From Alphaproteobacteria bacterium (GTDB lineage Bacteria > Pseudomonadota > Alphaproteobacteria > SP197), in contig CBDCEA010000004.1 of the NCBI GenBank assembly GCA_965215635.1, positions 48,492 to 112,491 on the forward strand: a DNA stretch of 64,000 nt, in the 5' to 3' direction. Below, one piece after another: positions 4,133 to 50,348 of this stretch (its first letter is position 1; every line of letters starts with the position of its first letter). Under the pieces are notes generated by a model. It had not been told where the DNA came from. It saw nothing but the letters and a program-made list of their open reading frames with translations, and made no database searches. The translations under genes and the position numbers were made by a program.

Positions 4133-5532
4133 GCTTTTGACGGTCGGACCATGTCGGCGGGCCTCACCCAGGAATCGAAGTCCTCGGCGCTGACGAGGCC
4201 GAGCGAGACCGCGGCGTCCTTCAGGGTCGTAGCTTCGGCATGCGCCTTCTTCGCGATCTTCGCGGCATTGTCGTAGCCGATGTGGGGATTGAGGGCCGTC
4301 ACCAGCATCAGCGAGCGCTGCATCATCTCCTCGATGCGATTCCTGTCAGCCTCAATGCCGGCGACACAGCGGTCCGTGAAACTCGCCGAGGCATCACCGA
4401 GAAGACGGGCGGAGCGCAGCACGTTGAAGACCATCACGGGCTTGAAGACATTGAGCTCGAAGTGTCCCTGTGCACCCGCGATCGTGACGGCTGTGTGGTT
4501 GCCCATGATCTCGGCGCAGACCATGGTGAGCGCCTCGCACTGGGTGGGGTTGACCTTGCCCGGCATGATCGAGCTTCCCGGTTCGTTGGCCGGCAGCAAG
4601 AGTTCACCGATGCCGCTGCGCGGGCCCGACGCCAACAGCCGGATGTCGTTCGCGATCTTGTTGAGGCTCACCGCGATGACATTGAGCGCTCCGGAGACCT
4701 CGACCATGGCATCGTGGGCTGCGAGGGCTTCGAACTTGTTGTCCGCCGTGACGAAGGGAAGGCCGGTCATTGCAGCAACGCTCCTGGCGAACGCGGTGTC
4801 GAATCCGGCCGGGCTGTTGAGTCCGGTGCCGACGGCGGTGCCGCCCATGGCGAGACGCAGGAGTCGGGGCATCGTTCCCCTGACGCGTTCGATTCCGAGT
4901 TCCACCTGCTTGGCGTAGCCCGAGAATTCCTGACCCAGTGTCAGCGGTGTCGCGTCCTGGAGATGGGTCCGGCCGATCTTGACGATGTCCCCGAACCCCC
5001 TTGCCTTGGCGTCGAGGGCCCCGTGAAGACGTTCGAGAGACACCAAGAGTCGCCTGTCGATCTCGATGGAGACGGCGATGTGCATGGCCGTCGGGAAGCC
5101 GTCGTTGGACGACTGGCTCATGTTGACGTGATCGTTGGGGTGGACCGGTGACTTCGAACCGAGCTCACCCCCGAGGAGCTCGATCGCGCGGTTGGCGATG
5201 ACCTCGTTGACATTCATGTTCGTCTGGGTGCCCGATCCGGTCTGCCAGACAACAAGCGGAAAGTGATCGCTCAGCCTGCCATCGATCACCTCGTCAGCAG
5301 CCTGCCGGATTGCTCCTGCCAGCTGCGGGTCCAGCCGTCGCGCCGACTCATTGACCTCGGCTGCCGTCTTCTTGACGTAACCGAAGGCCCGGATCAGCTG
5401 ATCGGGCATCCGTTCGGATTGACCGCCGATCGGGAAATTCTCGAGCGACCTCTGGGTCTGGGCTCCCCAGTACCGCTGGGAAGGAACGTTGATGTCCCCG
5501 ATGGAATCGGATTCGATACGGTAATCGGACAT
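4129..5532 (-). CDS. fumC: fumarate hydratase class II
   Basis: N-terminus [29 protein letters not shown] and the [16 protein letters not shown] signature loop. 467 aa. Confidence 0.9.
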
Positions 5533-5582
5533 GGGCGGATCCCGGTCTGCACGGCTGCCTCAATAGCACATCTCGCCGTGCC

Positions 5583-5601
5583 TGCGAACGATTCTCAATT
5601 G
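5583..5601 (-). promoter_or_regulatory. Fur-box-like motif (minus strand CAATTGAGAATCGTTCGCA) upstream of fumC-fbpB
   Basis: Shares the core ATTGAKAATCRTTCGCA with the motif upstream of fbpA. Lies about 50-70 nt upstream of the fumC start. Confidence 0.3.
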
Positions 5602-5614
5602 TCCCGGATTCGCC

Positions 5615-6070
5615 CTATTTCCTGCGGAAGGTATCGAGGGAGACAACGGTTCCGGCAGCGCTCTGCTCACCGGCGGTCGTGTCCTCGGTGGGCGCGTCTT
5701 CCCCGTCACTCCCATCCGGGGTCACCCTGAAGTTCAGTCCGAATTTGACGCTCGGATCGGCAAACGACGTGATCGCGGTCCAGGGAACACCGAGCTCGTG
5801 GGGCATGCGGTCGAACGAGAGGCCGATGGAGAAGCCCTCGTCGCCGACCTCGAGGTTCCAGAACTGATTCTGGATCACGATCGTGATTTCCTCGGGATAC
5901 CGGGCCTTCAGGGCCTTCGCAATTCTCACGCCGGGATGGTCCGTGCGGAAGGTGATATAGAAGTGATGGTCGCCGGGCAGGCCATCGCCCGCCGCGATCT
6001 CGAGGGCATGGGTGACGACGCTGCGCAACGCGTGATCGACCAGCAGTCCATAGTGGATCGATTCGCTCAT
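5615..6070 (-). CDS. sspB: ClpXP protease specificity-enhancing factor SspB (alphaproteobacterial type)
   Basis: Collinear with Caulobacter SspB-alpha: GEHHFYITF, IVLQHQFW-like IVIQNQFWNLEVGDEGFSIGLSF, and an acidic unstructured tail. Confidence 0.75.
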   Translation of the reverse strand: MSESIHYGLLVDHALRSVVTHALEIAAGDGLPGDHHFYITFRTDHPGVRIAKALKARYPEEITIVIQNQFWNLEVGDEGFSIGLSFDRMPHELGVPWTAITSFADPSVKFGLNFRVTPDGSDGEDAPTEDTTAGEQSAAGTVVSLDTFRRK

Positions 6071-6093
6071 CGGACGCCCGGGACGGTGAAGCA

Positions 6094-6131
6094 GGAAAAA
6101 GCGGAGGGCTTCTGTTGCCCGGTGCCCTCCG
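6094..6131 (-). terminator. Intrinsic-terminator-like hairpin (GGAGGGC/GCCCTCC stem then a T5 run on the minus strand)
   Basis: Read on the minus strand: GGAGGGCACCGGGCAACAGAAGCCCTCCGCTTTTTCC. Downstream of lipoprotein copy 1, about 25 nt upstream of the sspB ATG. Confidence 0.45.
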
Positions 6132-6391
6132 AACCGCGCTTTCCGCTTATGCAGCGATAGCGTACGCCTCGTTGTCGTTGGCGATTGTATGTTTGACCCG
6201 ATAACGGCGGAATCATACCGGACGAAAACCGAACCTTTACCACGCGCGTCGATCCTGGTTCGCCCCCATAAGGTTTATGGTGGAGGCGGCGGGTACTGCC
6301 CCCGCGTCCGCAACGTCTATTCCGAGCGGCGTTTATCGCCATAGCCCAGCAAGCCGGGCAACCGTTCATATAGTGCATCCGCACACCACTT

Positions 6392-7090
6392 TCAACCGTT
6401 GACGTCATCTGGTCCCGTGACCAGGCCGACTCTGCCCACCGCCACAATGAACGCTTGAGCGGCCCCCCGAAACTGGACGCCAGGTCCTTCGACGGCACCG
6501 ATTCGTGCCGCCTCGCGTTGCCTCTCGAACTCACGCAGTTCGGCGTCGCGCGCTTCGTCGATAGCGCGCGCCAGCGACTCGCAATCCTGCCAGTTCTCAT
6601 CACAAGACTGCCCCAACTCCATCGCCGCCTCTGCAGCCTCCCGCTCGATCCGTGTCCTCTGACGGTCGAAGAACGCATCGCGTTCGTTGGCATTGGAGAA
6701 CTCCTTTGGCACGAGAACAATCGTGACGCTCTCTGGATATTCGTTCATCACGCCCGAACTTGCATCGATCACCACGCCGATAACGCCCCCCAAAATAATG
6801 TTGCCAAACGTCATTGCCTGGAAGTCTGAAGAAAGGGAAGCGGCCCCATTGAAATACCTGTCCTTCTCACAAACAATGCTGATGTTATCCTTGCTTTTTT
6901 CTATCGATACCGTTCCCGGTGTGGGGTTCGCTACAGCGACCACCGAACCGTCCCGGGACAAGGTGCAGACAGCGTTCGGTGGTTCGGTAAGTACCGTCAC
7001 GGTCTGGTCGGTGCCCTCGATGATCGTCGCGCAGGCTCCCAGTACAAGCAACAAGGGGAGTATGCCCGTTACGGCCCACCGATGTTGCAT
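6392..7090 (-). CDS. Hypothetical lipoprotein (copy 1); carries a 31-aa C-terminal extension relative to copy 2
   Basis: Signal peptide with lipobox LVLGAC. Paralogous to the 17703-18308 protein. The stop position of copy 2 reads GGA here. Confidence 0.55.
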   Translation of the reverse strand: MQHRWAVTGILPLLLVLGACATIIEGTDQTVTVLTEPPNAVCTLSRDGSVVAVANPTPGTVSIEKSKDNISIVCEKDRYFNGAASLSSDFQAMTFGNIILGGVIGVVIDASSGVMNEYPESVTIVLVPKEFSNANERDAFFDRQRTRIEREAAEAAMELGQSCDENWQDCESLARAIDEARDAELREFERQREAARIGAVEGPGVQFRGAAQAFIVAVGRVGLVTGPDDVNG

Positions 7091-7116
7091 TGTCCCCCCC
7101 AGGTGCCGATATCAGC

Positions 7117-7164
7117 TCGCGAGACGATTCGTGTATCACGTCGCGAGACGATTCGTGTATCACG
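7117..7164. repeat. Perfect 24-bp tandem duplication (TCGCGAGACGATTCGTGTATCACG x2) just upstream of the lipoprotein copy 1 start
   Basis: Two exact adjacent copies. Copy 2 of the module has a single copy of the unit. Confidence 0.85.
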
Positions 7165-7767
7165 TGCGAGGATTTCCCATATGGCGACCTTCAGCCAGGT
7201 CGAGCGTGGCCCGGGATCGTTCAACGGGCGAGCCCGATGGGTTCTGCCACCATGCTCATGCCCGACACCGCAAAATCAGAGAGTCAACGGGACATGGTGG
7301 CATGCGGTATTGCCGGTCGTCTTCTCGCATGAGGGGCGATCCTGTCGTCATGTTGGGAGGTGCGTCGTTCTGAGGCGATCGATCCAAACACCCGACAGGT
7401 CGCTCAAACTCCAAGTTGTGTCATTCCCATGCGTCGAAGGACGCGGCGCGCGAACCGAGCCGTGTCCTGGTCCCGGCGCATTGCTGGTGGAGAGCGATAT
7501 CCTCCTGCGTGCACTGTCCGGTACCGCATGGTCACCCCTGCCTTCAGGCAGGGTTCCAGGATCCTCTGGATGAATCCTCACGCGCGTTATGTTCATGTTG
7601 ACGGACCTCCGTCGATGTCCGCCTTGCGAGCCCGGACGATACCGGAAACGCTCGGGCCGCCAAGGCCTTGACCACTGGAAACAACTCTCACCGAACAGCG
7701 CCGGAAGAGAGCTGACGCGAGCTGCGCAATTCAGCGTGCCGGAGGCGATAGCAGTATTCATCCGAGG

Positions 7768-8427
7768 TCATGGTGTACGGTTCATTATACGAAGGTGCCA
7801 GTCGCCCCAGTCCGCCCCCCCTTCGAACGCTGGATTTCGGCCTGTGCAGGCCGCTTCACCGTTCGGTTCCAGTTCGCAATCGGCGATGCCGCGATAAACG
7901 TAGGACCCGTCGGTGCAATACATATCTTCCCTGTCGTTGATCTGAAGCATTCCGCTCTCGAGATAGGTTGCCCACACTTCTCCTTCGCACTCCACGCCGT
8001 CAGTCATCACCAAGTGCTTTTCACCGTTGCCGTTCTCGTCGAAACACATTTCCAGTGATGCGACCTCAGTCACCTCATGTGTTTCGACGTCTTCCACGCT
8101 GAAGTCCGAAGCAAGAGACCAGCAGCCCTCGAGCGACGAAAGATCCTTCTGCGCCCACTTCTCCGCATCCAGCATGTCCGGGTCCGGTTCAGGTGGCGGT
8201 TGCAGTTCGGCGCGCAGTTCCGGAGGTGGTTGCAGTGGAAGATGGGGCGGGCAGGCGGGAAGTCCGACGAGGTGCCTCTCGAGTCCGCGCAGCCTGTCCT
8301 CGAGAACTGCGAGCCGTTCCAGTTCCTTCTCCAGTTCCGCCGCCATGGCGACATTCACTCTCATTGCAGCACTTTCAAAGGCGGCATTCAGCCTCAGGTC
8401 CTCAGGCTGGCGCGGCGTCGCCTGCAT
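7768..8427 (-). CDS. Hypothetical protein with coiled-coil, Pro-rich linker and Cys-rich C-terminal domain
   Basis: Lower-GC patch. The ORF reads protein-like from MQATPRQPEDLRLNAAFESAAMRVN onward. No recognisable family. The start is uncertain (8427, 8364 or 8349). Confidence 0.35.
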   Translation of the reverse strand: MQATPRQPEDLRLNAAFESAAMRVNVAMAAELEKELERLAVLEDRLRGLERHLVGLPACPPHLPLQPPPELRAELQPPPEPDPDMLDAEKWAQKDLSSLEGCWSLASDFSVEDVETHEVTEVASLEMCFDENGNGEKHLVMTDGVECEGEVWATYLESGMLQINDREDMYCTDGSYVYRGIADCELEPNGEAACTGRNPAFEGGADWGDWHLRIMNRTP

Positions 8428-8439
8428 CACCTGGCACAA

Positions 8440-9316
8440 GAACTTCAATGGCGAGGACTGGCCCCGCGATGCCTTCGGCACATGCGTGGTGCCGATCCAC
8501 GGCCCCGCAGAGACTGGATCGGCGACCGTCCGGCTGGCCGAGAAGCGTATCAGGCTGAGGACAGGGCTCGAGGTGCGCCAGATCCGACGCCTTCTCGACA
8601 ACGGGCGCCAGGTGCCATTGATCACCACTCACCCCGCGATGCCGATGGAAGAGGTCGCCGGCTCCATGTTCTCGCGCTGGTCCCAGGAGAACTTCTTCAA
8701 GTACATGCGCGACGCGTTCAACCTCGACGCGCTGCCGGACCACGCGCTCGAGCCGATCGATCCTGACGCCCGGGTCGTCAACCCCGCCCGCAGGACTGTC
8801 GAGAAGACCATCGCCACAGTCCGGTCGCGTCTCAAGAGCCTCCATCTGCGCATCGTCAGGGCGACGAAGAAGGGCAGGCCCATCGACGATCTCGTGGCCG
8901 GGGTCGGCGCCCTCGATGAAGAACTCGAGGCGTTCAAGGAGCAACGCAAGGACCTGCCGCGCCATGTTCGCGCCGGCGACCTCCCGGAGAACCAACGGCT
9001 CGACGCCCTGCCGGTCGCAAGGCGCCTCCTCCTCGATGTCATCCGCATGATGCCACCCGTGATCGAGGCACAGGGCAAGAAATCCAATGCCCGCAAATTG
9101 CTCGCAGCGCTGATGACGGCCGACGCCAACATCCTGCCGGATCCCGGAAACGGCATCCTCCGGGTCCAGATCCTGGGTCTTGCCAGGAACGCAGTCGACC
9201 AGGCGCTCCTGCCGTTGATCGATGAACTCAACCAGACAGAAACCGTCTGTCCGGGTACCAGCCTCCGCCTCGTCTACGAAATGGCAGGCACTTCACCCCA
9301 CAATGAGGTCACCTGA
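8440..9316 (+). pseudogene. C-terminal remnant of a DDE transposase (IS4/IS701-like signature)
   Basis: SRWSQENFFKYMRD fits the YREK-region motif R-x3-E-x6-K followed by a long tail. The N-terminal catalytic region is absent. The upstream part of the ORF is GC-rich nonsense overlapping the opposite-strand gene. Confidence 0.35.
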
Positions 9317-9768
9317 ATTGGACGAGGTCAGGAAGTCTGAGCCTGTCGAATAAGCTCATCGCCAAGTCATGACGCGAGCAGGGCAGGATTGGTTCCTGTC
9401 TTTCGGCGAGGCTGTCAACCGGAAACTGTTATGCCTTCCGGTCTCTTCCGTTGAGGATTTGCAAACGCCTTTGCCCCGAAATGGGTGAAATCCTGCAAAT
9501 TGGGTCGATGACATGAAACGGTAAGGCCAAGACTGGTCGCGGTCGCCGTTTGCGCGGTGACATCGAGCGTCCCGGCGTGGGCCATCTGGTGGTGGCTCGC
9601 GCATAACGGGTGAGCGCGGCGGACGGCGGTGCGCTGCGCAGCAGGGAAGGTGCTGCGAAACGCAGGCCGGGTGGACGGTGCAAGGGAAACCGGCAGGTCT
9701 GAGGGCAGGGTTGACAACAGACTTGTTGCCAACGATATTGATGCCAACAAAACCGTTGGAATAAAGAC

Positions 9769-11020
9769 ATGATCCGAAAAGGCGGAAGCAACTGGGTCGA
9801 CGGAGAGAACTTCTTCGATCGCGAGACGGAACTGGAAGCGCTGGAAGAGCGGGTGCGGGAAGGAACCCACACCCTGCTGACCGCACAACGGCGGATGGGC
9901 AAGACCAGCCTCGTGCGGGAGCTGCAGCGCCGCCTGGCCGAAACGGGAGACTTCGAGGTCGTCTTCGTCGATCTGGAGGCGGCCACCGATCCGGCCGATG
10001 CGATTGCTGAAATCGGGGTTCAGGTGAAGCCCGTGCGTGCTGCGTGGAATCATGACCGGCTTCGCGAATCTGGTGAGGAGCGCCGGCGGCCGGATCGAGG
10101 AACTGTCGGTTGCGGATCTGAAGGTGAAGCTGCGCGCCGGGATCGATGCAGGCAATTGGCCGCAAAGAGGTGACGCGATCTTTGCCGCCCTGGCGGAAAG
10201 CGGTCGGCCGGTCGTGCTCGCGATAGACGAGTTGCCGATTCTCGTAAACCGGCTGCTGAAGGACGAGACGGGGCGCATGACGCCGGAGGGGAAGCGGGAA
10301 GCAGACGCGTTCCTGAGCTGGCTGCGCAAGGTGGGGCAGTCCCATCGGGATCGGGTCACGCTGATCCTGTCGGGCAGCGTGAGCCTCGAGCCGCTGCTTG
10401 AACGGGCCGGGCTCAGCGCCCAGGCCAATATCTTTTCTCCCTACGACCTGAAACCGTGGAGCGAGGAAACGGCCGTTTCCTGCCTGGAGGCACTTGCCGA
10501 GTCGTATGAGGTAGGTCTTGCGCCGGAGGCCCGCAGGGACATGTGCCGCAGGCTGCGTTGCTGCATCCCGCACCATGTCCAGATGTTCTTCGACAGGATG
10601 CACGATCATCTGCGGCGCGCCGGGCGGAAGGACGCCTCGCCGGAAGATGTCGAATGGGTCTATGTGCGAGAGATGCAGGGCGTCCGGGGGCAGGTCGACC
10701 TGCAGCATTACGAGGGCCGGCTGGAGACGGTCCTCGGAAGAGCGGGGTACACGGTTGCGCTGGAGATTCTGACGGCAACGGCGGTCGACGGCGATATCGC
10801 CGCTGAAACGGTCGACCGGTACCGCAGCTGGTTCTCAACGCGCGACGCGCACGACGGAGACGGTGCTTCCGCGGTCGATCATGTGCTGCGCGTGCTGCAG
10901 CACGACGGCTACCTCGAACCCGGGGACGGCGGTTACCGGTTCGTTTCCGGTCTGCTCGAGGATTGGTGGCGGGCGCGCTACGGGCAGAGGTTCGTGCCCG
11001 TGTTCGACCGGCAGCGGTAA
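9769..11020 (+). pseudogene. PF01637-like (archaeal-type) AAA ATPase, interrupted by a +1/-1 frameshift near 10025-10037
   Basis: Frame 1 carries FFDRETELEALEERVREGTHTLLTAQRRMGKTSLVREL (Walker A). Frame 2 from 10028 carries Walker B VVLAIDELP and the rest, about 417 aa if repaired. The frame 1 continuation after the shift is Arg-rich nonsense. Confidence 0.55.
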
Positions 11021-11037
11021 GAACGGGAGTCGGGCCG

Positions 11038-14000
11038 ATGGCTGTGACCGCCAGGAAGTACAATCCGGGCTTTCTCTCGATCGACGAACTGGTCGCGACC
11101 TTCTGCGTCCGGACGGCCGAGTACGAATCCCTGATCGAGGCGCTGCGCGAATGCTCGGGCAGCGCCAACACCCATCAGATCGTGATCGGGCCGCGCGGCA
11201 GCGGAAAGACGAGCCTCCTGCTGCGGGTCGCTGCGGAGGCGCTGCGCGATGCCGATCTCTCGGCGCGCTTCTTCCCGATTGTGTTCGCGGAGGAAAGCTA
11301 CGAGGTCTCGACCGCCGGCGAGTTCTGGCTCGAATGCCTTTCCCGGCTGGCCGATCAGGCGCCGCGCCGGGAAGGCGGTGTCGACTTGCAACGCACCTTC
11401 GAGGAGCTGCGCACCGTCCATGACGACCGGGCGCTGGAAGATCGGTGCCTCGGGGTGCTGCAAGACTTCGCCGACCGGGAAAAGAAGCGCGTCGTGCTGA
11501 TCGTCGAGAACCTGAACATGATGTTCAGGGACATGGGCGACGACAATGCGGGCTGGCGGCTGCGTAAGGCGCTGCAGACCGAACCGCGGATCGTTCTGCT
11601 GGCGAGCGCGACCAGCCGGTTCGACCAGATGAACGATCCGAAGGAAGCGCTCTACGAGCTCTTCCGGGTGATCCGGTTGCGTCCCCTCGACACGGAAGGC
11701 TGCGCGACCTTGTGGCAGACAGTGTCGGGGCAGGCGCGGGCGCCGCAGACGATCCAGGCGCTGCGGATTCTCACTGGCGGCAGTCCCAGGCTGCTGACCA
11801 TCGCCGCCCGTTTCGGCGCGAACCTGTCATTCCGCGAGCTGATGGCCGATCTTCTCGATCTGGTCGATGACCATACCGAGTATTTCAAGAGTCACCTCGA
11901 TGCGCTCCCGGCGCAGGAGCGAAAGGTGTATCTCGCCCTTGCCGATCTCTGGAAACCGGCGAACGCGCGCGAGATCGCGGACCGGGCCAGGCTCGGGACC
12001 AGCAAATGCAGTGCTCAGCTTGCCCGTCTGGTCGACAAGGGCGCTGTGGAAGTGACCGGCGGCAGCGCGCGGCGCAAGCTCTATTACCTGACCGAGCGGC
12101 TCTACAACATCTACTACCTGATGCGCCGGGCGCGCGGACCGGCGCCGCTGATCGATGCGCTGATCCGTTTCATGGAGGCCTACTACTCCACCGACGAGCT
12201 GAGGGAGTTCGGCGCCCGCATGGCGCGGGAAGCGCTGGGGTTCGACGGCGGTGCGTTGGCGATCTACCGGATGGCCTTCGAGCGTCTTGTCGGACTGCCG
12301 TCCCTCGAAGCGCACCGCGAGGAGCTGCTTTCGCTAGCGTCGCCTGCCTTTGCGTATGCGCCCAGTGAGTTTTCTGCGGTATCCCCGGCACTGTCGGCCG
12401 CGAGGGAGCTCTTGGGGAAAGCGCTGGCGCTCGCGGAAAGCGGTCGGTTGCAGGACGCCGTGGCGGCCTGGGACGAGGTAATCCGGAGGTTCGGGGCAAG
12501 CGATGCGCCGGCGGATCTCGAACAGGTGTCGCTGGCGCTCGTCAACAAGGGGAAGGCGTTGGGCGGGCTGGGAAGAGCGGAAGAAGCTCTGGCCGTGCTG
12601 GACGACGTGGTGCGGCGTTTCGGGGTGGACAACGGAGAAGGCCACCCTCTGGCGGTGGCGACGGCGCTCGCCGGCAAGGGCGGAATGCTGAGCAACCTGG
12701 ACCGCCACACGGAAGCGCTTACAGCCTGGAAGGAGGTCGCGCGGCGCTTCGGCAAGAGTCGGGTGCCGGCGCTCGAGGTGCTGGTGGTGAACGCGATGAT
12801 CGGGACGGCGGTCGCGCTGAACACGTTGAACCGGCACCGGGAAGCCCTGCAGGCCTGCGACGAAGTGTTGGAACGCTTCGGCAAGAGCGGTTCGCCGGCG
12901 CTTGACGGTGAATTGGCGGCAGCCATGGTCGGACGGGGTCACGCGCTGATCGCGCTGGGCCGAGTCGATGAGGCGATAAGCGCCTGGGGTGCCGTGGTGG
13001 AGCGTTTCGGGAAGAGCGACTCTCTCAGAATCGTCGAACAGGTGGCCTCGGCGCTTGCGAACATAGGCACGGCGCTGTTCCAGGCGGGCCGGTTGGAGGA
13101 AGCGCTCGCCGCGTTCGATGGGGTCGTGCAAAGCTACACGGCAAACGATGCGCCGATCCTCCGGGAGGTGATAGCGCGCTGTTTCGTCAACAGAGGCAAC
13201 GTGCTGGCCGCGCTGAAGCGGGAAACGGAAGCGCTCTCGTCGTGGGAAGAAGCGATCAGGGGCTTCGAGGCGGGCGGTTTGCCGGAGGTGGCAGAACCGT
13301 TTTGCAACGCGCTGATGAACAGGGCGGCGGCGCTGCACCATGCGGGAAGGCCGGAGGAAGCGCTGGATATGTGGGGCGGCGTGGTGGAACGCTTCGGGGC
13401 CGACGACCGGCCCGCACTCCTCACCATGGTCGCGAATGCCCAGACTCACAGGGGCGCCTTGCTGGAACAGTTGGGCCGATACGAGGAGGCACTCGCGGTC
13501 TGGCAGGAGGTTGAAGACCGTTTCGGGAACAGCGACATGCCGGAATGGGTCGCGCTGATCGCAAGCTGCTTCCAGCACAGGTGCGCCGACCTGTTCGAGC
13601 TGAACCGGACGGAAGAGGCGCTCGCAACGTGCGACCGGGCGATCGACCGATTCGGGCAAAGCCCCGTACCGGCGGTTCTTGAGACAGTCGCGGGGATATT
13701 TCTGAACAAGGGAATCGTGCTCGTCACTGCACACAGGAACGAGGAGGCGCTGGCGGTCTGGGACGAGATCGAACGGCGTTTCGGAAACAACTACGAGCCG
13801 GAAATTTTGAAGCACGTTGCCTCGGCCCTCGTCAGCAAGGGTACGACGCTGGTCCATATGAACAGGGCGGAGGACGCGGTTGGGGTATGGGGCGACGTCG
13901 TGCGCCGGTTCGGGGAGGGCGACTCACCCCTGTATCACGAGGAGATTGCGACGTCTGTCCTCAACAGGGTGGTGGTGCTGGGCTTGTTGAACCGGCCGGA

Positions 14001-14670
14001 CGAGGCGCTTGAGGCCTGTGACGAGGCGCTCCGGCGATTCGGGAGCGGTGAAGACCCTTACGGTGTTGAGGCAGTCGCACAAACTCTCGTTAGTAAGGGT
14101 TCGCTCCTTGCCGGTCTGGACCGGACCGAGGAGGCGTTCGCTGCGTGGGACGAGGTTGTCCGGCGCTTCGAGGCGAGCGATGAGCCGGCGCTTCGCGACG
14201 CGGCGGAATCGGCGCTGTGCCGGCGGGCACAGCACGAATTGACCGAAGGCCGGGCAAGGGACGCCGTCGCGTTTCTCGACCGTGCGCTGCTGCAGGGGCG
14301 GGCGGGAATTCCAGACAGCAGACTGCAGGGCCATCTGATCCGGGCCCGGGCGCACTTGGCGGAAGGCGATGGCGAAGCATGCGCCGGGGATGTCGAGACG
14401 ACACTGTCGATCCTTCCCGAATTGAACATGTTGCCGAGGGACGTGCTGGTGGCTCTGGCCGATCTCTCGGCGGGTGTCGGGCTGGAGAGGATGTGCGGTC
14501 TGATCAAGTCGTCGCCCGCTGACGATCTCCTGCTTCCGTTGAGGACGGCGCTGGAGCGCGAACTTGGGTTGGAGCCGAGGGTGGCCAGGGAAGTCGAAGA
14601 GATTGCCGAAGACATACGCCGGGAATTGCTTGTCGGGCGCAAGACTGAGGAGCAACGACGGACGGCTTGA
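11038..14670 (+). CDS. P-loop NTPase (PF01637/STAND-like) fused to a ~620-aa array of ~14 tandem 44-aa TPR-like repeats
   Basis: Walker A GPRGSGKTSLLL, Walker B-like VVLIVENLN, sensor-like RIVLLASATSRF. Then repeats of the pattern EEALAxWDEVxxRFGxSDxPxxxExVAxALxNKGxxL. SD GGAG sits 8 nt before the ATG at 11038. 17 nt downstream of the preceding ATPase. Confidence 0.7.
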   Translation: MAVTARKYNPGFLSIDELVATFCVRTAEYESLIEALRECSGSANTHQIVIGPRGSGKTSLLLRVAAEALRDADLSARFFPIVFAEESYEVSTAGEFWLECLSRLADQAPRREGGVDLQRTFEELRTVHDDRALEDRCLGVLQDFADREKKRVVLIVENLNMMFRDMGDDNAGWRLRKALQTEPRIVLLASATSRFDQMNDPKEALYELFRVIRLRPLDTEGCATLWQTVSGQARAPQTIQALRILTGGSPRLLTIAARFGANLSFRELMADLLDLVDDHTEYFKSHLDALPAQERKVYLALADLWKPANAREIADRARLGTSKCSAQLARLVDKGAVEVTGGSARRKLYYLTERLYNIYYLMRRARGPAPLIDALIRFMEAYYSTDELREFGARMAREALGFDGGALAIYRMAFERLVGLPSLEAHREELLSLASPAFAYAPSEFSAVSPALSAARELLGKALALAESGRLQDAVAAWDEVIRRFGASDAPADLEQVSLALVNKGKALGGLGRAEEALAVLDDVVRRFGVDNGEGHPLAVATALAGKGGMLSNLDRHTEALTAWKEVARRFGKSRVPALEVLVVNAMIGTAVALNTLNRHREALQACDEVLERFGKSGSPALDGELAAAMVGRGHALIALGRVDEAISAWGAVVERFGKSDSLRIVEQVASALANIGTALFQAGRLEEALAAFDGVVQSYTANDAPILREVIARCFVNRGNVLAALKRETEALSSWEEAIRGFEAGGLPEVAEPFCNALMNRAAALHHAGRPEEALDMWGGVVERFGADDRPALLTMVANAQTHRGALLEQLGRYEEALAVWQEVEDRFGNSDMPEWVALIASCFQHRCADLFELNRTEEALATCDRAIDRFGQSPVPAVLETVAGIFLNKGIVLVTAHRNEEALAVWDEIERRFGNNYEPEILKHVASALVSKGTTLVHMNRAEDAVGVWGDVVRRFGEGDSPLYHEEIATSVLNRVVVLGLLNRPDEALEACDEALRRFGSGEDPYGVEAVAQTLVSKGSLLAGLDRTEEAFAAWDEVVRRFEASDEPALRDAAESALCRRAQHELTEGRARDAVAFLDRALLQGRAGIPDSRLQGHLIRARAHLAEGDGEACAGDVETTLSILPELNMLPRDVLVALADLSAGVGLERMCGLIKSSPADDLLLPLRTALERELGLEPRVAREVEEIAEDIRRELLVGRKTEEQRRTA

Positions 14671-14689
14671 TCGTTTCAGTCAGAGTCGA

Positions 14690-14899
14690 CCCGACATGCC
14701 GGACGATCCATGGCCAATCGACTTCGCCGAGCGGTGCATGGACGGCAACGAGCCGGACGCGGTGAACGATGCGGGACAGCAGGATGGTCATTGCCTGGCT
14801 GTCCTTGCCACCGATGGTGTTGATCGCCACGAAGGCTCCGGCCCGGATCATGTCCCGGCAGTCCGAAGGGACACGGATGTCGGCGAGGTCGGTGGCCAT
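14690..14899 (-). pseudogene. N-terminal fragment of a PAPS-reductase-like PP-loop protein, truncated where it meets the 3' end of the NTPase-TPR gene
   Basis: MATDLADIRVPSDCRDMIRAGAFVAINTIGGKDSQAMTILL carries the SGGKDS PP-loop. The reading frame then runs into the convergent 11038-14670 gene, so only ~70 aa are present. Confidence 0.4.
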
Positions 14900-15345
14900 G
14901 GATGGGTCTCCCAGTTGGCGGTGCGGGGGTCACACTCCGGCCCCAGGCGTCGCCCGGAGGACGTCGGCCGCCACCTCCGGGGGGCGTGCTACTCGGAACC
15001 GGAAGACCTACTCGTTGGATGAAGCGCACCGTCCGGGGCCGTCCCGGGGACGCGGGGCCTGGATTCCCGAAGGGGCGGAATCCGTGCTACCTCTAAGACC
15101 GCTTCGGCCCCCTTTCGGCCGGGAGCAGCGACAACGGGCGGGCAGCGAGGGACATGGGGTTGAAACCGGGCGATGTCGATGCGATGACGGGTGCTGGCGG
15201 GAGCTTCTCTGGATGGAACAACCAATTGAGGGAACGCTACGGGTCAGGCACGTCAGACTCGGGTCGGTGCACGGCGCTCGGCAAAACAAACAGAAACGCT
15301 GCAGAGGTGACAACGATGCTAGAAAACCAGCATATCGTTTCAGAT

Positions 15346-16338
15346 AGGAACCAGTATCGAGAGCGGCTCGAAGGCTACCTCGAAACGGTTCTTCAGCTCG
15401 GTGTTTCCTTGCAGGACTAGGACGGGCACGAGACGCTGCCTGTCTTTCTGACCCGACTCTACCGGTTCTTCGAGACTCGGATCGGTCAGTCGCCGCTTCT
15501 CTTCATGTCTGCGAGGCAAACCGGGGAACACACTCCGGCAGAGATCGCGAAGCACCTTGATCTGGCGAAGCCGGAGTTCGACGGAATAGTCGTCTATTCA
15601 GCCGAACGAATTGCTGCGGGCTTTCGCGCACGGCTTGTTGCAGCTGGCGTGGCCTTCGCCGTTCCCGGCAATCAGCTGTTTGTTCCGGAACTCGCAACGG
15701 ACTTGCGCGAGCATTTCAGGGGGCCGAAGCCGGAGCGGCCCGACAAGCTATCGCCATCGGCTCAACTGGTTCTGTTTTTCCACCTCCTCCAAGGTGAGCA
15801 GGCGCGGTCATGGACGCCAACCGAGCTCACAGAACCACTTCGGTATTCGATCATGACCATGGGCCGGGCTTTTGATGAGCTTGCCGCCGTCGGACTTGCC
15901 CGGATCGAGCGACGTGGCCGCAAGAAGCTCTTGTGGTTCCGCGCGGAGGGGCGCTTGCTGATTGATACTGCAAAGACGCTCCTGATTCGTCCTGAACGTC
16001 GGCTAGACCACATTCGCTGGCTGAAGGAGCCGCCTGATTTGCCGCTGGCTGGCGAGCATGCCCTCGCGCGGCTCAGCGATCTCAGCCCGCCAGCGGTGCC
16101 ACCGGTTTACGCAGTGACGCCGGAACAGATGCGAGATTTCCTCGCGGTTGGGTGGGCGGATCTGAGGGAGGCGGACTACGACTCGGACGGAACACTTGCG
16201 ACTTGGCGATACGACCCGCAGGTATTGTCACGGAACGATTTGGTCGATCCGCTCTCTCTCTTCGCACAGTTTTGGGATGACCCCGACGAACGCTTGTCCA
16301 TGGCCGTCGATCGACTGCTGGAGCGATGGACATGGTGA
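15346..16338 (+). pseudogene. AbiEi-like wHTH antitoxin candidate, interrupted by an in-frame TAG at 15418-15420 (alternatively an intact 277-aa product from ATG 15505)
   Basis: Frame 1 is open 15154-16338 except for a single TAG. Sequence on both sides of the TAG reads protein-like (MLENQHIVSDRNQYRERLEGYLETVLQLGVSLQD / DGHETLPVFLTRLYRFFETR). There is a low-GC leader before ATG 15346. Winged-helix segment SIMTMGRAFDELAAVGLARIERRGRKKLLWF. The last 13 nt overlap the downstream gene. Confidence 0.4.
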
Positions 16339-16974
16339 GAGGGCTTGACCGGTTCCGAGAGCATTTCGCCGGGCACGAAGAAAGCTATGCGCTGATTGGC
16401 GGTGCTGCCTGCGATATCCTCTTCGGAGAAGCCGGGCTTCCGTTTCGGGCCACCAGGGACTTCGACATTGTGCTATGCGTCGAGGTCGTCAGTGCCGAAT
16501 TTGGCACGGGCTTTGCAGATTTCCTGGAAGCAGGTCGATATCGGGCCAGGGAGCGCTCGACCGGCAGGCGGGAATTCTCCCGCTTTCATCGCCCTGCAGA
16601 CGAAACGTTCCCGGCAATGATTGAACTCTTCGCCCGACGACCGGATACACTGAATAAGCCTTATCGACGAGACGATCCTTATCCCGTTTAAAGCACGTGC
16701 TTTTCTCGATCCTTCCGGACGCAAGGCGAATGGCGAAGACGTTGATGCCCGGCACATACGAAAGCACCGCGCTGATGTGTTCCGGCTCGCCCAGCTGTTG
16801 CCGGGCAGCGGCAACCTGCCCCTCGCCGACCCCTTACGGGCTGACCTGGCCGCGTTTCTCGATCAGGTCGCAAGCGATCCGGACTTCGATTACAAGGCGT
16901 TAAAGCTACCACTGCCGCTGGCGGATGCGACGGCAATACTGGATGGGTACTATCAGCTCAGCTCTTCTGCCTAG
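16326..16974 (+). pseudogene. AbiEii-type minimal nucleotidyltransferase toxin candidate, frameshifted near 16654-16691
   Basis: The N-terminal frame has the NTase motif LIGGAACDILFGEAGLPFRATRDFDIVL (hGG...R.T.DFD). After the stop at 16691 the protein continues in another frame from 16654: ISLIDETILIPFKARAFLDPSGRKANGEDVDARHIRKHRADVFRLAQLL... to 16974. Confidence 0.5.
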
Positions 16975-17217
16975 ATCGTGCCCCGCAGACTGGTGTGCAC
17001 TCATCGGCAAAGGACGGCAGCATTGCGGGTCTTGTATGAGGTTGCCTTCGCTGCATTGAATGGTTGCGAGTAACGGCCCTGTTCTGGACGCCTGATAGCG
17101 CTTTTGTTGCCTGGATGGTTCGTATCCTGTGGAGACCGGGATCGAAGACGCAACCCTCAGCGACGCGGAATCTGGAGGCGCCCGGACGACTGATATTTTG
17201 CCGCGGTTCCGATTGAA

Positions 17218-17597
17218 CACAGGCTTGTGCACATCCAGAGCATGCGTCTTTCCTCCACAGAATCCGCCAGCGCATGCCTTTTCTGGCCGACTGGCGCATG
17301 CTCTGCCTTCGGAAAGTTCACTGACGTGATGAAGCTGGTTGCTCCGGGCGTGCCCGGGAGTCAGACCGCATGGAGGCAAGGGTCGATCGAACGGAGTAGG
17401 GCGTCAGGATGATAACCGCGGACCAGCGCGAGCAGATCAGAACGCAGCGTGCCTCAAGGAACGATAACCGGCGTGTCGTCAGCCTGGCGCTGGAGGAGAT
17501 CCTGTACGAACCCATGGCGGTGCTCGATCACGGTTTCGTGCGTGTCGTCGACTACATGGGCAATGACGATGCCATCGTGCAGGCGGCCCGCGTGTCA
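17218..17597 (+). pseudogene. Displaced 5' fragment of thyX (promoter region plus first ~63 codons); ~85% identical to 20226-20620
   Basis: Nucleotide alignment with the intact thyX 5' region. Homology stops abruptly at 17597, where the lipoprotein module begins. Confidence 0.6.
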
Positions 17598-17602
17598 CAC
17601 GT

Positions 17603-18590
17603 AGTTCATCCGCTCATCCGCACACCACTTGCAACTGTTGAAGGCTCCTGGCCATCATCACAATGAACGCCTGAGCGGGGCTGCCCGAAACCTGACACCA
17701 GATCACTCGGCAGCGCCGATTCGAGCCGCCTTACGCTGCCTTTCAAGCTCACGCAGTTCGGCGTCGCGCGCTTCCTCGATAGCGCGTACCAGCGACTCGC
17801 ACTCCTGCCTGTTCCCTTCACAAGACTGCTGCAACGTAGCCACCATCCCAGCGGCCTCCCGCTCGATCCGTGTCCGCTGGCGGTCGAAGAACGCATCGCG
17901 GTCGTTGGCGGTGGAGAACGCTTCCGGCGCGAGAACAATCGTGACGCTGGCCGGGTATTCGTTCATCGCACCCGAGCTTGCATCGATGGCCAGGCCGATA
18001 AAGCCGCCGATAAGAATGTTGCCAAACGTCATTGCCTGGAAGTCTGAAGAAAGAGCAGCGGCGCCATTGAAGTACCCGTCCTTCTCACAAATGATGCCGA
18101 TGTTATCCTTGCTTTTTTCTACCGATACCGTCCCCGGTGTAGGATTCACCACAGCGACCGTCGCTTCGTCCTGGGACAAGGTGCAGACAGCGTTCGGTGG
18201 TTCGGTAAGTACCGTCACGGTCTGATCGGTGCCCTCGACGATCGTCGCGCAGGCTCCCAGAACAAGCGACAAAAGGAGTATGCCCGTTACGGCCCACCGA
18301 TGTTGCATTGCACCCTCCAGGTGTCGATATCTGCTCGCGAGACGATTCGTTTATCACGTGTAACCAGGATTTCCCATGTGGCACCCTTCAGCCAGGTTGA
18401 GCGTGGCCCGGGATCGCTCAACGGGCAGGCCCGATGGGTTCTGCCACCATGATCATGTCCGACACCGCGAAATCAGAGAGTCAACGGGACATGGTGGCAT
18501 GCGATATTGCCGACCCTGTCGTCATGCTGGAGAGGGGCGTCGGCCCGAGCCGGTCGATCCAGACACCCGCCGGGTCCGCGAAGGCGACGT
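17603..18590. repeat. Copy 2 of the duplicated lipoprotein module
   Basis: About 85% nucleotide identity to 6362-7410. The left boundary coincides with the thyX-fragment junction. Confidence 0.8.
17703..18308 (-). CDS. Hypothetical lipoprotein (copy 2, 201 aa)
   Basis: Signal peptide plus lipobox LVLGAC. Paralogue of the 6392-7090 protein. Confidence 0.55.
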   Translation of the reverse strand: MQHRWAVTGILLLSLVLGACATIVEGTDQTVTVLTEPPNAVCTLSQDEATVAVVNPTPGTVSVEKSKDNIGIICEKDGYFNGAAALSSDFQAMTFGNILIGGFIGLAIDASSGAMNEYPASVTIVLAPEAFSTANDRDAFFDRQRTRIEREAAGMVATLQQSCEGNRQECESLVRAIEEARDAELRELERQRKAARIGAAE

Positions 18591-18792
18591 GGGATGGGAT
18601 CCGATTCACCTTCCGCGTTCCGCATCCGGGCCGTCTCCACGTCATCCAACCATCCGAGCCTCTTGCAATATTCCTGACCCCGAGGGCCGGTGAGCCCGGA
18701 TCGGGCAGTTGACCGCAGACACCTCTGCGCCTGGAAGCCGGAATCCGTGGATTCGCGGTGGCTCGCCGAGGAATTGAGAACAAACGAGGAAC

Positions 18793-20200
18793 TTTGCGGG
18801 CCTCAGGGCAAGCCTCTCCAGGCCGTCCTCTTCAAGAGGGCGACCAGAGGTCGAAGCGGTCTGTCGGAGCCGCCCTATGGGGCGGCGAGACGTATCAACT
18901 GGTCGACCGTCAGGGCAAGGATACCGAACATGAGATGGCAGGCGACCTTCGCGTGTCCCCGGACGCGGACATGGCGCCCGCCGAACTCGTCCTTGAGGCG
19001 GGCGTTGGTCCTCTCGACACCGGAACGGATCCGGAAACGCACGCTCCCGGGGTCGACATGGCCCGCCGCACGCCGGGCCCGGGCCTCCCGGTCCAGCTCC
19101 TCCTTGAGTTCCTTGTCCCGGCGCGGGTTGACGTCGATGATCGGAACATGGCCAAGGCGTTCACTTGTCTGGTGGATCTCCCTGGCGTCATAGGCCGAGT
19201 CCATGAGATCGTAGAGGTTGGTCACACGCCCGGCGGTCATCATCGCCAGCGGGATCGCGACCTGGCTGTCATGGATAGATGCCGAAGTGAGGATGGCACT
19301 CAGCGGCACTCCGCAGTCCGCCGTGTCGATATGCAGTTTGTAACCTTGCCAGGTCGTCTGGAACCCCTTGGCGTTCTTCTTGGCCCCATGATTGCAGAGC
19401 TTCGGCAGCTCGGCGAGCATCTCATCGAGACTCATGCCGTTGACCTGCTGTTCGAGACGGCTCGGTTTTTTCGTCTTCTCCTCGCCCTTAGCGTCGTCGG
19501 CCGCGCTTGCGTTTCGGTGTCTTGTCGGCCTCCGGCTTCGGTGCCGGCTTCTCCCGGGCCTCGATGGCCGTCGAGTCCCTCGACACGTGGCCGATGAGCT
19601 CGTCGCCCATCGCCTCTTCAACCAGGGCCTCGTGCATCCTCTCCGGAATACGGAACTGCGAGAACTCGGCAAACGCCCGTGAAAACGTCGCCTCGCTCGG
19701 GATCTCCACGACACGCGACCAGCCGCACAGTCTCCGCAGCGTCGGGTCCACCTTGAGCCTGTCGATCAGATGGCGGGTCGTCGGCAGATCCCACACGGCC
19801 TTGGCGATGAAGCCGCGGGCCAGCGCCCGGCGATCCTCCTGGGGCCGTCCCGGACCGTTCCAGACCTCACCGATGAAGCGCTCCACCCTGACGAGATCGA
19901 GAGCCGTCACGAAGCGTTTGTGCACCTCCAGGAGAGGTCCAACCTCCTCGGCCAGCGCAGGGAAAAGTTCCCCTTGAAATCGGTGCCAGATGTCCGATAG
20001 GGTCGAACCAAGGGTCATCGGGGTCGCCTCCGCGGTATCTTGGGGATTAGGAAAATCCAATATACCACCAGGCGGCCCCGGAACCCAGGCGCCTTACACC
20101 AAAATCAGCCCCGACAAGGCAAAAAACCTGTCATTCCGACAGTTTTGCAAGAGCCTCATCTGACACCGAACGTGGAATCACCGTCCAAGAGGTCCAACGC
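18793..20200 (-). mobile_element. IS5-family insertion sequence; ends approximate
   Basis: Contains a two-frame transposase. Imperfect terminal matches (GAGGAACTTTGCGG near 18797; GGTGAACTTCGGCG on the complement near 20200). The ends were not confirmed by clean inverted repeats or a target-site duplication. Confidence 0.5.
18875..20060 (-). CDS. IS5-family DDE transposase split into two overlapping frames (N-terminal part 19488-20060, C-terminal DDE part 18875-19714)
   Basis: The N-terminal part has the InsH-like DNA-binding region. The C-terminal part has HIDTADCGVPL...IHDSQVAIPL...ERTNARLKDEFGGRHVRVRG. The frames overlap by 226 nt and there is an A6 run near the junction. Either a programmed frameshift or an inactivating indel. 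Confidence 0.6.
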
Positions 20201-20433
20201 CGAAGTTCACCTGGGGAATGCGGGTTAAACACAGACTTGTGCACACAGTTGTCTTCAAACTCCCGTTTTTCTTCGAAATATAGTCTGCCAGCGCATGCCA
20301 TTTCTGCCCGACCGGCGCATGCTCTGCTTTCGGACAGTTCACTGACGTGACGAATCCGATCGCTCCGGTCGTCAATGAATCGACAACCGCGTGGAGGCAA
20401 GGGTCGATCGAACGAAGGAAGGCGTCAGCAGGG

Positions 20434-21363
20434 ATGATGATAACTGCGGACCAGCGCGAACAGATCACAACGCAGCGTGCCTCAAGGAACGATACCCGGC
20501 GTGTCGTCAGTCCGGCGCTGGAGGAGCTCATGTACGAGCCCATGGCGGTGCTCGATCACGGTTTCGTGCGTGTCGTCGACTACATGGGCAATGATGATGC
20601 CATCGTGCAGGCGGCTCGGGTGTCATACGGTACGGGGACAAAGTCGGTGCGCGGCGATGCCGGTCTGATCGGCTACCTGATGCGTCACAGGCACACGACA
20701 CCCTTCGAGATGTGCGAGATCAAGTACCATGTGAAGCTTCCGGTGTTCGTGGCCCGCCAGTGGATTCGCCACCGCACCGCCAACGTCAACGAGTATTCTG
20801 CGCGCTATTCGATCCTGGACCGGGAATTCTATATCCCGGCACCCGAGAGCCTGGCTGCACAGTCATCGATCAACGGGCAGGGCAGGGGCCAACTGCTCGA
20901 AGGAGACGAGGCGCAATCTGTACTGCAGATCCTGAAGGAGGATGCCGGCAAGGCCTGCGACGATTACGAGCACATGCTGAACGAAGGCGAGCATGCCGAT
21001 CCTTGCCGTCTCGGATTGGCACGGGAACTCGCCAGGATCAATCTGCCTCTGGGGATCTATACACAGTGGTACTGGAAGACCGATCTTCACAATCTCTTCC
21101 ACTTCCTGGCGCTGAGGGCCGATTCCCATGCCCAGTACGAGATCCGCGTCTATGCCGAAGCCATGCTGGAAACCGTCAAGGCCTGGGTGCCGCTCGCCTA
21201 TGAGGCCTTCGTCGAGTGCCGGTTCGGGGGCGCGGAACTGACGGCAGGCCAGCTCGCCGTGCTGCGCCGCATGTTGAAGGGCGAGGAGGTGACGCTCGAG
21301 ACGAGCGGGCTCGGCAAGAGGATGTGGGACGAGCTTCAGGCGGTGCTGGACGCTACTCGATGA
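20434..21363 (+). CDS. thyX: FAD-dependent thymidylate synthase
   Basis: [43 protein letters not shown] is the ThyX signature (RHRxxS-like). The 5' ~190 nt overlaps the duplicated thyX segment. Confidence 0.85.
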
Positions 21364-46985: not shown

Positions 46986-47001
46986 GGGACTGCCATTTTG
47001 T

Positions 47002-48949: not shown

Positions 48950-48956
48950 GGATGTT

Positions 48957-50347: not shown

Positions 50348-50348
50348 A

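Follow-up and report, generated by a model that had tools for sequence, protein, structure and literature searches.

A decayed mobile operon encodes a matched pair of STAND/Orc-like P-loop NTPases without a recognizable effector domain

What can two nucleotide-binding proteins, one of them bearing a long array of repeats, do for a bacterium when neither carries a recognizable effector? The question is raised by an operon at 9710–14682 of a 64,000-nt stretch of DNA from an Alphaproteobacteria bacterium (assembly GCA_965215635.1, contig CBDCEA010000004.1, positions 48,492 to 112,491 of the forward strand), hereafter called the window. An initial annotation had described a two-gene P-loop ATPase locus with an N-terminal NTPase followed by repeats and had read it as STAND-like. 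Both genes are present at these positions, and a P-loop nucleotide-binding/oligomerization domain (NOD) module (nucleotide-binding domain, helical domain, and winged helix) and C-terminal repeats were found. The locus is a decayed copy of a self-contained mobile operon whose two genes specify STAND/Orc-like P-loop NTPases as a matched pair. With a probability of about 40%, the pair is an autoregulated sensor/helper system resembling NOD-like receptors (NLRs) that acts in biological conflict, its output being the ATPase/winged-helix complex itself.

In the operon, one promoter is followed by two genes in the same direction. The first (9769–11020, plus strand) encodes the small partner ATPase, with a PF01637/STAND-type nucleotide-binding domain, a helical domain, a winged helix, and no repeat domain, and it is a pseudogene in the window. 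The gene starts with the ATG at 9769 and loses its frame after approximately codon 93; the frame-1 ORF covers 9769–10173, and the remainder lies in frame 2 until the TAA at 11018–11020. Alignment with L001, a syntenic relative with 98% nucleotide identity across this gene, showed that 5 nt are missing between 10046 and 10047: L001 has GGATCGGATC, and one GGATC copy has been lost from the window, which bears out the earlier statement that the partner ATPase is disrupted. In relatives the intact protein has 418 aa. Its Walker A motif is RRMGKTS and its Walker B motif, AIDEL, is canonical, and the N-terminal fragment encoded in the window matches PF01637 in Pfam. The small gene was independently disrupted in 5 of approximately 74 other distinct loci (L058, L050, L039, L032, and L006, which equals L007), and a programmed frameshift was rejected because these disruptions fall at different positions. 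With its partner gene frameshifted, the system presumably does not function in the window, although the large (sensor) gene is still intact there. The two genes are separated by a 17-nt spacer (11021–11037, plus strand) containing a GGGAG ribosome-binding site, exactly the gap reported before (stop at 11020, ATG at 11038), and they may be translationally coupled.

The large gene is intact. It extends from the ATG at 11038 to 14670, and its product has 1210 aa; the length of 1211 aa in the initial annotation had counted the stop codon. The N-terminal part (aa 1–455, 11038–12402, plus strand) comprises the NTPase, a TrmB/MarR-type winged helix, and a helical linker, and the C-terminal cap (aa 1058–1210 plus the stop codon, 14209–14670, plus strand) is all-helical, with neither a beta-containing nor an enzyme fold. 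The Walker A motif GPRGSGKT lies at aa 51–58 (11188–11211), and in the Walker B motif LIVEN (aa 153–158, 11494–11511) an Asn replaces the second acidic residue. The winged helix (aa 293–350, about 11914–12087) matches the TrmB, MarR, CasR, and Csa3 models. In Pfam, the large protein matched AAA_16 (E 5e-10, aa 23–183 of a query with one extra N-terminal residue), TrmB (1e-6), and many tetratricopeptide repeat (TPR) families, including TPR_1 (E 5e-30) and TPR-S (PF20308; 33.9 bits against a curated cut-off of 27.6), together with weak matches to ORC-CDC6-like, ATPase_2, and nSTAND; the ORC-CDC6-like score at the N terminus was 23 bits against a cut-off of 27. The AlphaFold model of a 1167-aa orthologue (predicted local distance difference test score, pLDDT, of 76) consists of the NTPase, a poorly modeled winged-helix segment, and an all-helical solenoid with the cap.

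The two nucleotide-binding sites of the pair differ in a consistent manner. Large proteins keep a Walker B motif of the form hhhh[E/D]N from Alphaproteobacteria to Clostridium, whereas their small partners have the canonical hhhDE form, and this asymmetry is conserved across phyla. By comparison with P-loop ATPases in general, such a difference suggests that a hydrolyzing partner is combined with a nucleotide-binding switch. The hhhhEN motif suggests that the large protein is a nucleotide-bound switch rather than a motor, and the canonical motif of the small protein suggests that it is competent for hydrolysis. The two ATPases had been regarded as paralogues of the same family, but they are not close paralogues: a profile–profile alignment with hhalign covered the Walker A region alone (36 columns, probability 45%), and the two are only remotely related.

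The repeat array (aa 456–1057, 12403–14208, plus strand) consists of 14 in-register TPR-like units of 43 aa with the consensus xALxNKGxxLxxLxRxEEALAxWDEVxxRFGxSDxPxxxExVA. No indel interrupts the 14 units, and one or two degenerate units follow. BLOSUM autocorrelation peaked at lags of 43, 86, 129, and 172 (scores 1.36–1.39; shuffle maximum −0.46), so that the approximately 14 regular units of the initial annotation stand but its period of about 44 aa is corrected to 43 aa (129 nt). A check for tandem repeats in the nucleotide sequence, proposed at the same time, gave a divided result: Tandem Repeats Finder detected nothing in the array because the DNA copies are too diverged, but ten copies of the unit with 62–74% identity were recognized at spacings of 129 or 258 nt. 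In the model, each unit forms a helix of approximately 20 aa, a helix of approximately 15 aa, and a variable loop. With its 43 aa, its helix A of approximately 20 residues, and its 9-residue variable loop, the unit is a TPR-like variant and not the canonical 34-aa TPR. Scaffold positions L10, R15, A19, W23, F30, and A43 are conserved, and variability among orthologues is concentrated in loop and surface positions (1, 12, 16–17, 21, and the loop 32–40).

The array evolves faster than the NTPase. The ratio of nonsynonymous to synonymous substitution rates (dN/dS) was 0.145 for the NTPase, 0.11 for the winged helix and linker, 0.32 for the repeats, and 0.275 for the C-terminal cap. Relatives of the large protein have lengths of approximately 820 to 1477 aa, differing chiefly in how many repeat units they contain, and those of 1167 and 1251 aa are close to 1210 minus or plus one 43-aa unit. 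Comparison of the window with L001 gave 99–100% identity over 11144–12820, 81–91% over 12821–14110 (repeats about 4–13, plus strand, aligned with L001 11780–13070), and 94–98% thereafter, and the synonymous divergence (dS) rose from 0.017 in the N-terminal half to 0.211 over the repeat region. With 88.6% identity to L001 and 88.1% to any other allele, the divergent patch is as distant from L001 as from the rest. The sharp patch boundary and the dS contrast between otherwise near-identical alleles point to replacement of the repeat block by recombination, and the alignments indicate that the sensor repeats are mosaic.

A scan of one genome per species gave 265 relatives, of which the best 80 loci were fetched. 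Upstream sequence was readable in 77 loci, and in 75 of these the small gene was found immediately 5′ of the large gene, at 53–94% identity. The pair thus co-occurs in other genomes, contrary to one of the outcomes that the initial annotation had named as speaking against it, and the two-gene pair is the conserved unit. When the flanking ORFs of the 80 loci were clustered, no family occurred in more than 7 loci, giving no conserved third gene. One exception is L012 (the same as L002), in which an AAA ATPase (340 aa) and an S8 subtilase (696 aa) occupy the place of the small ATPase (6902–9983). We take this AAA–protease pair to be IetAS-like. The subtilase ORF ends in the last nine residues of the small ATPase, FVPVFDRQR, followed by the stop codon, with the 17 nt to the large gene kept, and the chromosome carries a second, intact copy of the cassette. 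A variable upstream effector as a general rule was rejected, since this locus is a single rearrangement that keeps the last codons of the small gene. Genes for an integrase, IS66, and TIR_2 are found close to it. The other exception, L041, has the large gene alone, inside a DUF1156-methylase operon (10007–16832).

The arrangement also extends to distant homologues. With genes overlapping by 8–11 nt, pairs of 23–27% identity in the same order are carried by plasmids of Moraxella osloensis (pNP7-2, 75937–79219; 397 + 699 aa), Clostridium tagluense (392 + 530 aa), and C. estertheticum (pCF003-70, 46465–50515; 408 + 943 aa, the second being a TPR protein). Partnerless TPR-bearing homologues, 38–42% identical, are present on Sphingobium and Agrobacterium plasmids. 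In L078, a second, divergent pair lies tail-to-tail directly 3′ of the first cassette (13216–19836, minus strand), with a small ATPase of 38% identity and a large relative of approximately 1745 aa.

A single promoter with a putative operator precedes the pair (9710–9759, plus strand). Its −35 hexamer TTGACA (9711–9716) and −10 hexamer GATATT (9734–9739) are 17 nt apart and form a sigma-70-like match of 10/12, the sole one within 9300–15200. Three palindromic 9-bp boxes, GTTGACAAC (9710–9718), GTTGCCAAC (9725–9733), and GATGCCAAC (9740–9748), and a half box GTTGG (9755–9759) are superimposed on it. Read in another way, the same bases form three 14-bp CAAC-N6-GTTG palindromes, phased at 15 bp so as to cover both hexamers and the start region, with half-site centers approximately 10 bp apart. 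The box cluster is unique within the 64-kb window, where the motif does not recur outside the cassette. The consensus gTTGACAAC-N6-GTTGCCAAC-gATATT-GtTGCCAAC-AatATc-GTTGG was found in 46 of 73 loci, with variants in the others, and the layout starts 58–60 nt 5′ of the ATG even in copies that are only approximately 60% identical in protein. We infer that the winged-helix proteins of the operon may themselves bind this operator and repress their own synthesis.

Directly 5′ of the promoter, approximately 100 nt of non-coding sequence (9611–9710 in the window) is conserved in one subset of loci (L004, L008, L010, L011, L014, L017, L018, L020, L021, L025, L027, L050, and L061). A structured RNA in this segment was considered and rejected (fold z-score −1.2, no Rfam match). 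Another subset (L003, L022, L030, L035, L054, and L070) has 110–250 nt of common upstream sequence on the minus strand that by eye resembles a tyrosine-recombinase remnant.

The operon behaves as a horizontally mobile cassette. Nucleotide similarity to most loci starts at approximately 9708–9711, at the −35 hexamer, and ends between the stop codon and 14682, the last bases common to other copies being TCGTTTCAGTCA (14671–14682, plus strand); the flanks are unrelated between loci. Among 16 full-length copies from differently labeled classes and phyla, the median dS was 0.33–0.42, a low cross-phylum value indicating that the cassette moves horizontally. A Bryobacterales copy (OZ220485) has 86% nucleotide identity over the N-terminal half, and a copy on a 199-kb Syntrophobacterales contig has 89%. 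The cross-class pattern was also seen on long contigs and complete chromosomes, including those of Paracoccaceae and Rhodospirillales, and more divergent clades (46–65% identity) were found on chromosomes of Vicinamibacterales, Binatia, Nitrospirales, Latescibacteria, and Pseudomonadales. Several genomes contain two cassette copies. An element with defined ends was considered and rejected: neither terminal inverted repeats nor consistent ends were seen, similarity stops on the right anywhere between the stop codon and about +40 nt, and a repeat search of 5500–21000 revealed no inverted repeats.

Pfam, PADLOC, and NCBIfam gave no nuclease, protease, TIR, SIR2, or similar domain in either protein, and the AlphaFold models of both contained the NOD, winged helix, and helical repeats alone, with no effector fold. 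The small protein (pLDDT 80) could be aligned to known structures over approximately 310 residues, the remainder being only winged helix. Its structural matches were the archaeal PF01637 ATPases 2fna and 2qen (score 21), CED-4 (17.6), a wheat NB-ARC resistosome protein (17.2), Orc/Cdc6 (15–16.5), and TnsC (13–15); by the Pfam model and by this fold, the small protein belongs to PF01637. Foldseek with the model of the large protein returned TPR scaffolds only. The earlier statement that no effector can be recognized is thus corroborated by hidden Markov model (HMM) libraries and by structure.

The same composition was found across the wider family. An exhaustive HMMER search with aa 1–455 yielded 4,265 representatives, clustered at 50% identity. 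Among the best 150 of these, the NTPase begins at residue 1 with few exceptions; lengths run from approximately 300 to 1,589 aa, and the shortest are probably fragments. In 10 family representatives scanned with Pfam, among them the 1427-aa homologue P0120, an AAA_16/ORC-CDC6-like domain is usually followed by a TrmB winged helix and then by TPRs or an unassigned C terminus. The domain content of these proteins indicates that the whole family lacks an effector and that none was lost locally. In PADLOC, mad8 and PDC-S01/S27 matched the Walker A region with E values of 1e-3 to 4e-6, and in NCBIfam DS41_1_antiphage reached 12–18 bits over this region, below its curated cut-off of 370 bits.

These features could be combined in the following working model, every mechanistic step of which is inferred. 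The product of gene 1 is a bare nucleotide-binding/oligomerization module of 418 aa with a winged helix, and that of gene 2 a putative 1210-aa sensor with an NTPase, a DNA-binding-type winged helix, and a fast-evolving, recombining TPR-like solenoid. At rest, the operon would be kept repressed by at least one of the two winged helices, bound to the three CAAC-N6-GTTG operators on its promoter. In an anti-phage or anti-mobile-element role, the solenoid would bind a foreign protein; this binding would release the sensor NTPase, and the released sensor would nucleate co-assembly with the partner ATPase. The output would be an ATP-driven winged-helix hetero-oligomer that acts on DNA or nucleotide pools with no attached enzyme. 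A module of conflict is favored because of the NOD and repeat-sensor anatomy, the fixed pairing, and the complementary Walker B motifs, and because of the mobility, the multi-copy state, the decay, the recombining sensor, and the occasional embedding among defense genes. A bolder version of the same idea, which we regard as doubtful, is that of an effector-free bacterial sensor/helper NLR pair in which a hydrolysis-impaired TPR sensor would detect a protein of an invader and recruit a hydrolysis-competent NOD–winged-helix ATPase, ATP-driven assembly on DNA would be the immune output, and the autoregulated cassette would move across phyla with its repeats swapped through recombination.

Several observations weigh against a role in conflict. 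An effector domain is absent from both proteins and from the 10 Pfam-scanned representatives, and characterized Avs and bNACHT systems generally need one. No PADLOC or NCBIfam defense model was matched, the similarity to mad8 and DS41_1 staying at the level of Walker A. Across approximately 65 loci the nearest neighbors are mostly housekeeping genes. Two winged helices and a palindromic operator are equally expected of a transcription regulator, and confidence in the modeled winged-helix region of the large protein is low (aa 258–367, pLDDT below 50). Selection on the repeats, with a dN/dS of 0.32, is still purifying overall. Some of the high-identity cross-phylum cases lie on short contigs of metagenome-assembled genomes (MAGs) and possibly reflect binning errors; L006 and L007 are an identical contig, flanks included, that was binned as Dehalococcoidia and as Candidatus Binatia. 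No relatives were found in the viral contigs of IMG/VR, giving no sign of phage carriage.

The best surviving alternative, though a somewhat unlikely one, is a ligand-sensing STAND-type transcription regulator, as are MalT, GutR, and AfsR, with an accessory ATPase and no immune function. The TPR array would sense a cellular or environmental signal, and the winged helices would act at the GTTG/CAAC sites to autoregulate the operon and control distant genes. Such a role is consistent with a DNA-binding-type winged helix in both proteins (TrmB, MarR, CasR, and Csa3 matches in the large one), with the operator array conserved over the operon's own promoter, with the lack of an effector and of PADLOC or NCBIfam matches, with the mostly housekeeping neighbors, and with weak TPR_MalT matches in relatives. 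However, no LuxR-type or OmpR/SARP-type DNA-binding domain was found with Pfam and NCBIfam in the window protein or its relatives, the internal TrmB/MarR-type winged helix being the only such domain. Placement in a MalT/SARP-type regulator family, which the initial annotation had named as the outcome that would speak against it, was not observed either, since no MalT-, SARP-, or LuxR-type domain and no characterized regulator family was matched. The cassette also travels without a conserved target gene (no neighbor family in more than 7 of 80 loci), and its operator motif is not repeated elsewhere in the window. Cross-phylum transfer, multiple copies, frequent pseudogenes, fast recombining repeats, and occasional embedding in defense loci likewise argue against a regulator and for a conflict module.

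Functions in mobile elements and in interactions with a host are less likely than either a conflict module or a regulator. In the former, which is quite improbable, the AAA+/winged-helix proteins would handle the DNA of an integrative element as an Orc/Cdc6-like replication initiator, as a TnsC/MuB/IstB-like regulator of target selection or transposition, or as a maintenance/addiction device. The repeated palindromes are iteron-like, in some loci the cassette adjoins transposases or integrases (in L088, rve transposases enclose the pair), and a tmRNA gene is close by in the window. Yet the pair has no conserved association with a transposase, recombinase, or relaxase, terminal inverted repeats and consistent ends were not seen, the nearest structures are STAND/PF01637 proteins and not TnsC, and the 600-aa protein-binding repeat array would be left without an explanation. 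It is very improbable that the large protein is a eukaryote-like TPR factor for host interaction or niche adaptation shared within sponge microbiomes, since, although the cassette is common to many phyla, ankyrin-repeat genes lie near some loci, and close relatives come nearly all from MAGs whose names presumably belong to marine-sponge microbiome sets, both proteins look cytoplasmic, no secretion signal being recognizable by eye, plasmids of Moraxella from human skin and of Clostridium from meat and feces carry homologous pairs, single homologues are present in Sphingobium and Agrobacterium, and the family is broad, with 4,265 representative clusters.

The conflict module favored here is similar to Avs1-21, bNACHT, and NLR receptors in its P-loop NOD, its winged helix, and its long C-terminal TPR-like sensor, in a sensor that outpaces the NTPase in evolution, and in its mobile, patchily distributed genes. 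It differs from them in that the family is without an effector, that an obligatory second gene encodes a sensor-less NTPase, that the sensor has the hhhhEN Walker B motif, and that no PADLOC Avs or NLR model was matched. In animals and plants, NAIP–NLRC4 and the NRC helper network offer a working analogy of two linked NOD proteins, one with ligand-binding repeats and the other sensor-less and possibly recruited into the oligomer. In contrast, a CARD or CC effector domain is part of the eukaryotic helpers, homology is limited to the NOD fold, and interaction and co-assembly are putative in the bacterial pair. The archaeal PF01637 (ATPase_2/"Arch_ATPase") proteins SSO1545 (2fna) and PABY2304 (2qen), which we take to belong to the MNS clade of STAND, have to our knowledge no established function. 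They are only 16–18% identical to the small protein, which is bacterial and coupled to a TPR-bearing NTPase.

MalT, GutR, and AfsR/SARP-LAL proteins share with the cassette an NTPase with a TPR/SUPR-type sensor, a putative DNA-binding output, the lack of an enzymatic effector, and a likely autoregulated promoter. Unlike in those proteins, the winged helix is internal and TrmB/MarR-type rather than terminal and LuxR- or OmpR/SARP-type, there is no family HMM match or linked regulon, and the cassette is mobile and often pseudogenized. With Orc1/Cdc6 and TnsC/MuB it has in common the ATPase–winged-helix layout and weak ORC-CDC6-like matches, but the scores are under the Pfam cut-off and no origin, transposase, or replication context was found.

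STAND/NLR-type receptors are central to bacterial immunity, and every characterized STAND/NLR family that we know of couples its sensor to an effector domain. Clades with neither an effector nor a defense-island context are usually set aside as "non-defense". STAND/NLR-like systems as such are already known; what is new is the effector-less form with two NTPases. Should the pair prove to be an immune module, its output would be of a new kind, and prokaryotes would have an equivalent of the sensor/helper NLRs that act in pairs; should it prove to be a regulator, it would be unusual in being mobile. The family is large (4,265 clusters) and effector-less, and in several distant lineages it forms a fixed pair of different NOD proteins with complementary catalytic motifs and a putative operator of its own. 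The cassette is a clonable two-gene unit of which intact alleles exist. Having spread among bacteria of many phyla that live together, it clearly illustrates the sharing of genes across a habitat. In the source annotation, the two proteins are merely a "tetratricopeptide repeat protein" and an "ATP-binding protein". With regard to published work, a recent survey of 589 prokaryotic STAND clades, which assigned defense association from either the effectors or the context of a clade, contains no mention of a pair like this one; neither Kaur et al. 2020 nor DefensePredictor describes it, DS-41 of the latter being, unlike the cassette, a single AAA protein. A search of the literature on PF01637 in defense and on paired bacterial STANDs found nothing usable. 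The suggestion that the system is undescribed therefore agrees with the absence of a PADLOC or NCBIfam family and of a match in the STAND and defense literature consulted.

The genomic neighborhood was then examined in the window and in other loci. Across the approximately 65 loci, the housekeeping neighbors were tRNA synthetase, PEP carboxylase, acetate kinase, RNase PH, and dehydrogenases, and a minority of neighbors were transposases, AAA_15/21 ATPases, and DUF1156 methylases. As raw counts, defense flanks comprised DUF499/DUF1156/SNF2-PLD genes in 4–7 loci, AAA_15/21 genes in 3, and the IetAS-like pair in 1. The cassette is embedded between genes for a DUF499 ATPase, a DUF1156 methylase, and an SNF2-PLD helicase in L065, L072, L076, and L051, and in L041 the large gene alone is so placed. 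The Sphingobium plasmid relative adjoins Pycsar, AbiE, and TIR genes, and the Moraxella plasmid relative adjoins QatD, a KAP NTPase, and a methylase. The association of the cassette with defense islands is only partial: the defense-island-like setting proposed at first is seen in the loci flanked by defense genes, but the mostly housekeeping neighbors do not conform to it.

In the window, the cassette lies in a stretch of approximately 10 kb between a tmRNA gene with a lipoprotein gene and thyX (20347–21363). The tmRNA gene (6100–6399, minus strand; Rfam RF01849, 248 bits) is of the two-piece alphaproteobacterial type, with SspB as its neighbor. Directly beside the tmRNA gene starts the variable stretch with the cassette, and no integrase is present there; tmRNA genes are classic integration sites of islands. 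Of the neighbors listed in the initial annotation, the insertion sequences (ISs) were confirmed, as a Transposase_29 fragment (8027–9316) and a DDE_Tnp_1 IS transposase (18875–19714, minus strand), but the toxin–antitoxin pair and the PAPS-reductase fragment rest on motifs and have no HMM match. For the fragment at 14504–14899 (minus strand), a PP-loop motif is visible by eye, and identity as PAPS reductase was rejected after no HMM or BLAST match was obtained.

Downstream of the cassette, the gene pair listed as toxin–antitoxin occupies 15505–16338 and 16326–16974 (the second ORF had been given as 16326–16691). Its second gene is disrupted in the window, and the pair is intact in L001 (14278–16064), where it encodes 341 and 255 aa. 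By eye, these are a winged-helix protein and a nucleotidyltransferase-like protein with a GG...D.D motif, reminiscent of AbiE; AbiE identity was rejected after no match was obtained with HMMs (Pfam, NCBIfam) or BLAST. On the other side, the C-terminal region of an ORF at 7768–8628 (minus strand) is SrfA-family-like (NCBIfam NF040486, E 8e-17, below the cut-off).

The stretch also contains segmental direct duplications of 82–93% identity, 6376–7315 versus 17615–18512 and 17263–17601 versus 20284–20629, both of which are absent in the syntenic L001. The first comprises the first 24 nt of the tmRNA gene and the lipoprotein gene (6392–7090 and 17703–18308), approximately 11.2 kb apart, and the second comprises the thyX 5′ region, approximately 3 kb apart around the DDE_Tnp_1 IS. 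A 24-nt tandem duplication (TATCA.CTCGCGAGACGATTCGTGTATCACGT) lies 5′ of the lipoprotein gene at 7110–7166 and is single in the duplicated copy at 18328–18360.

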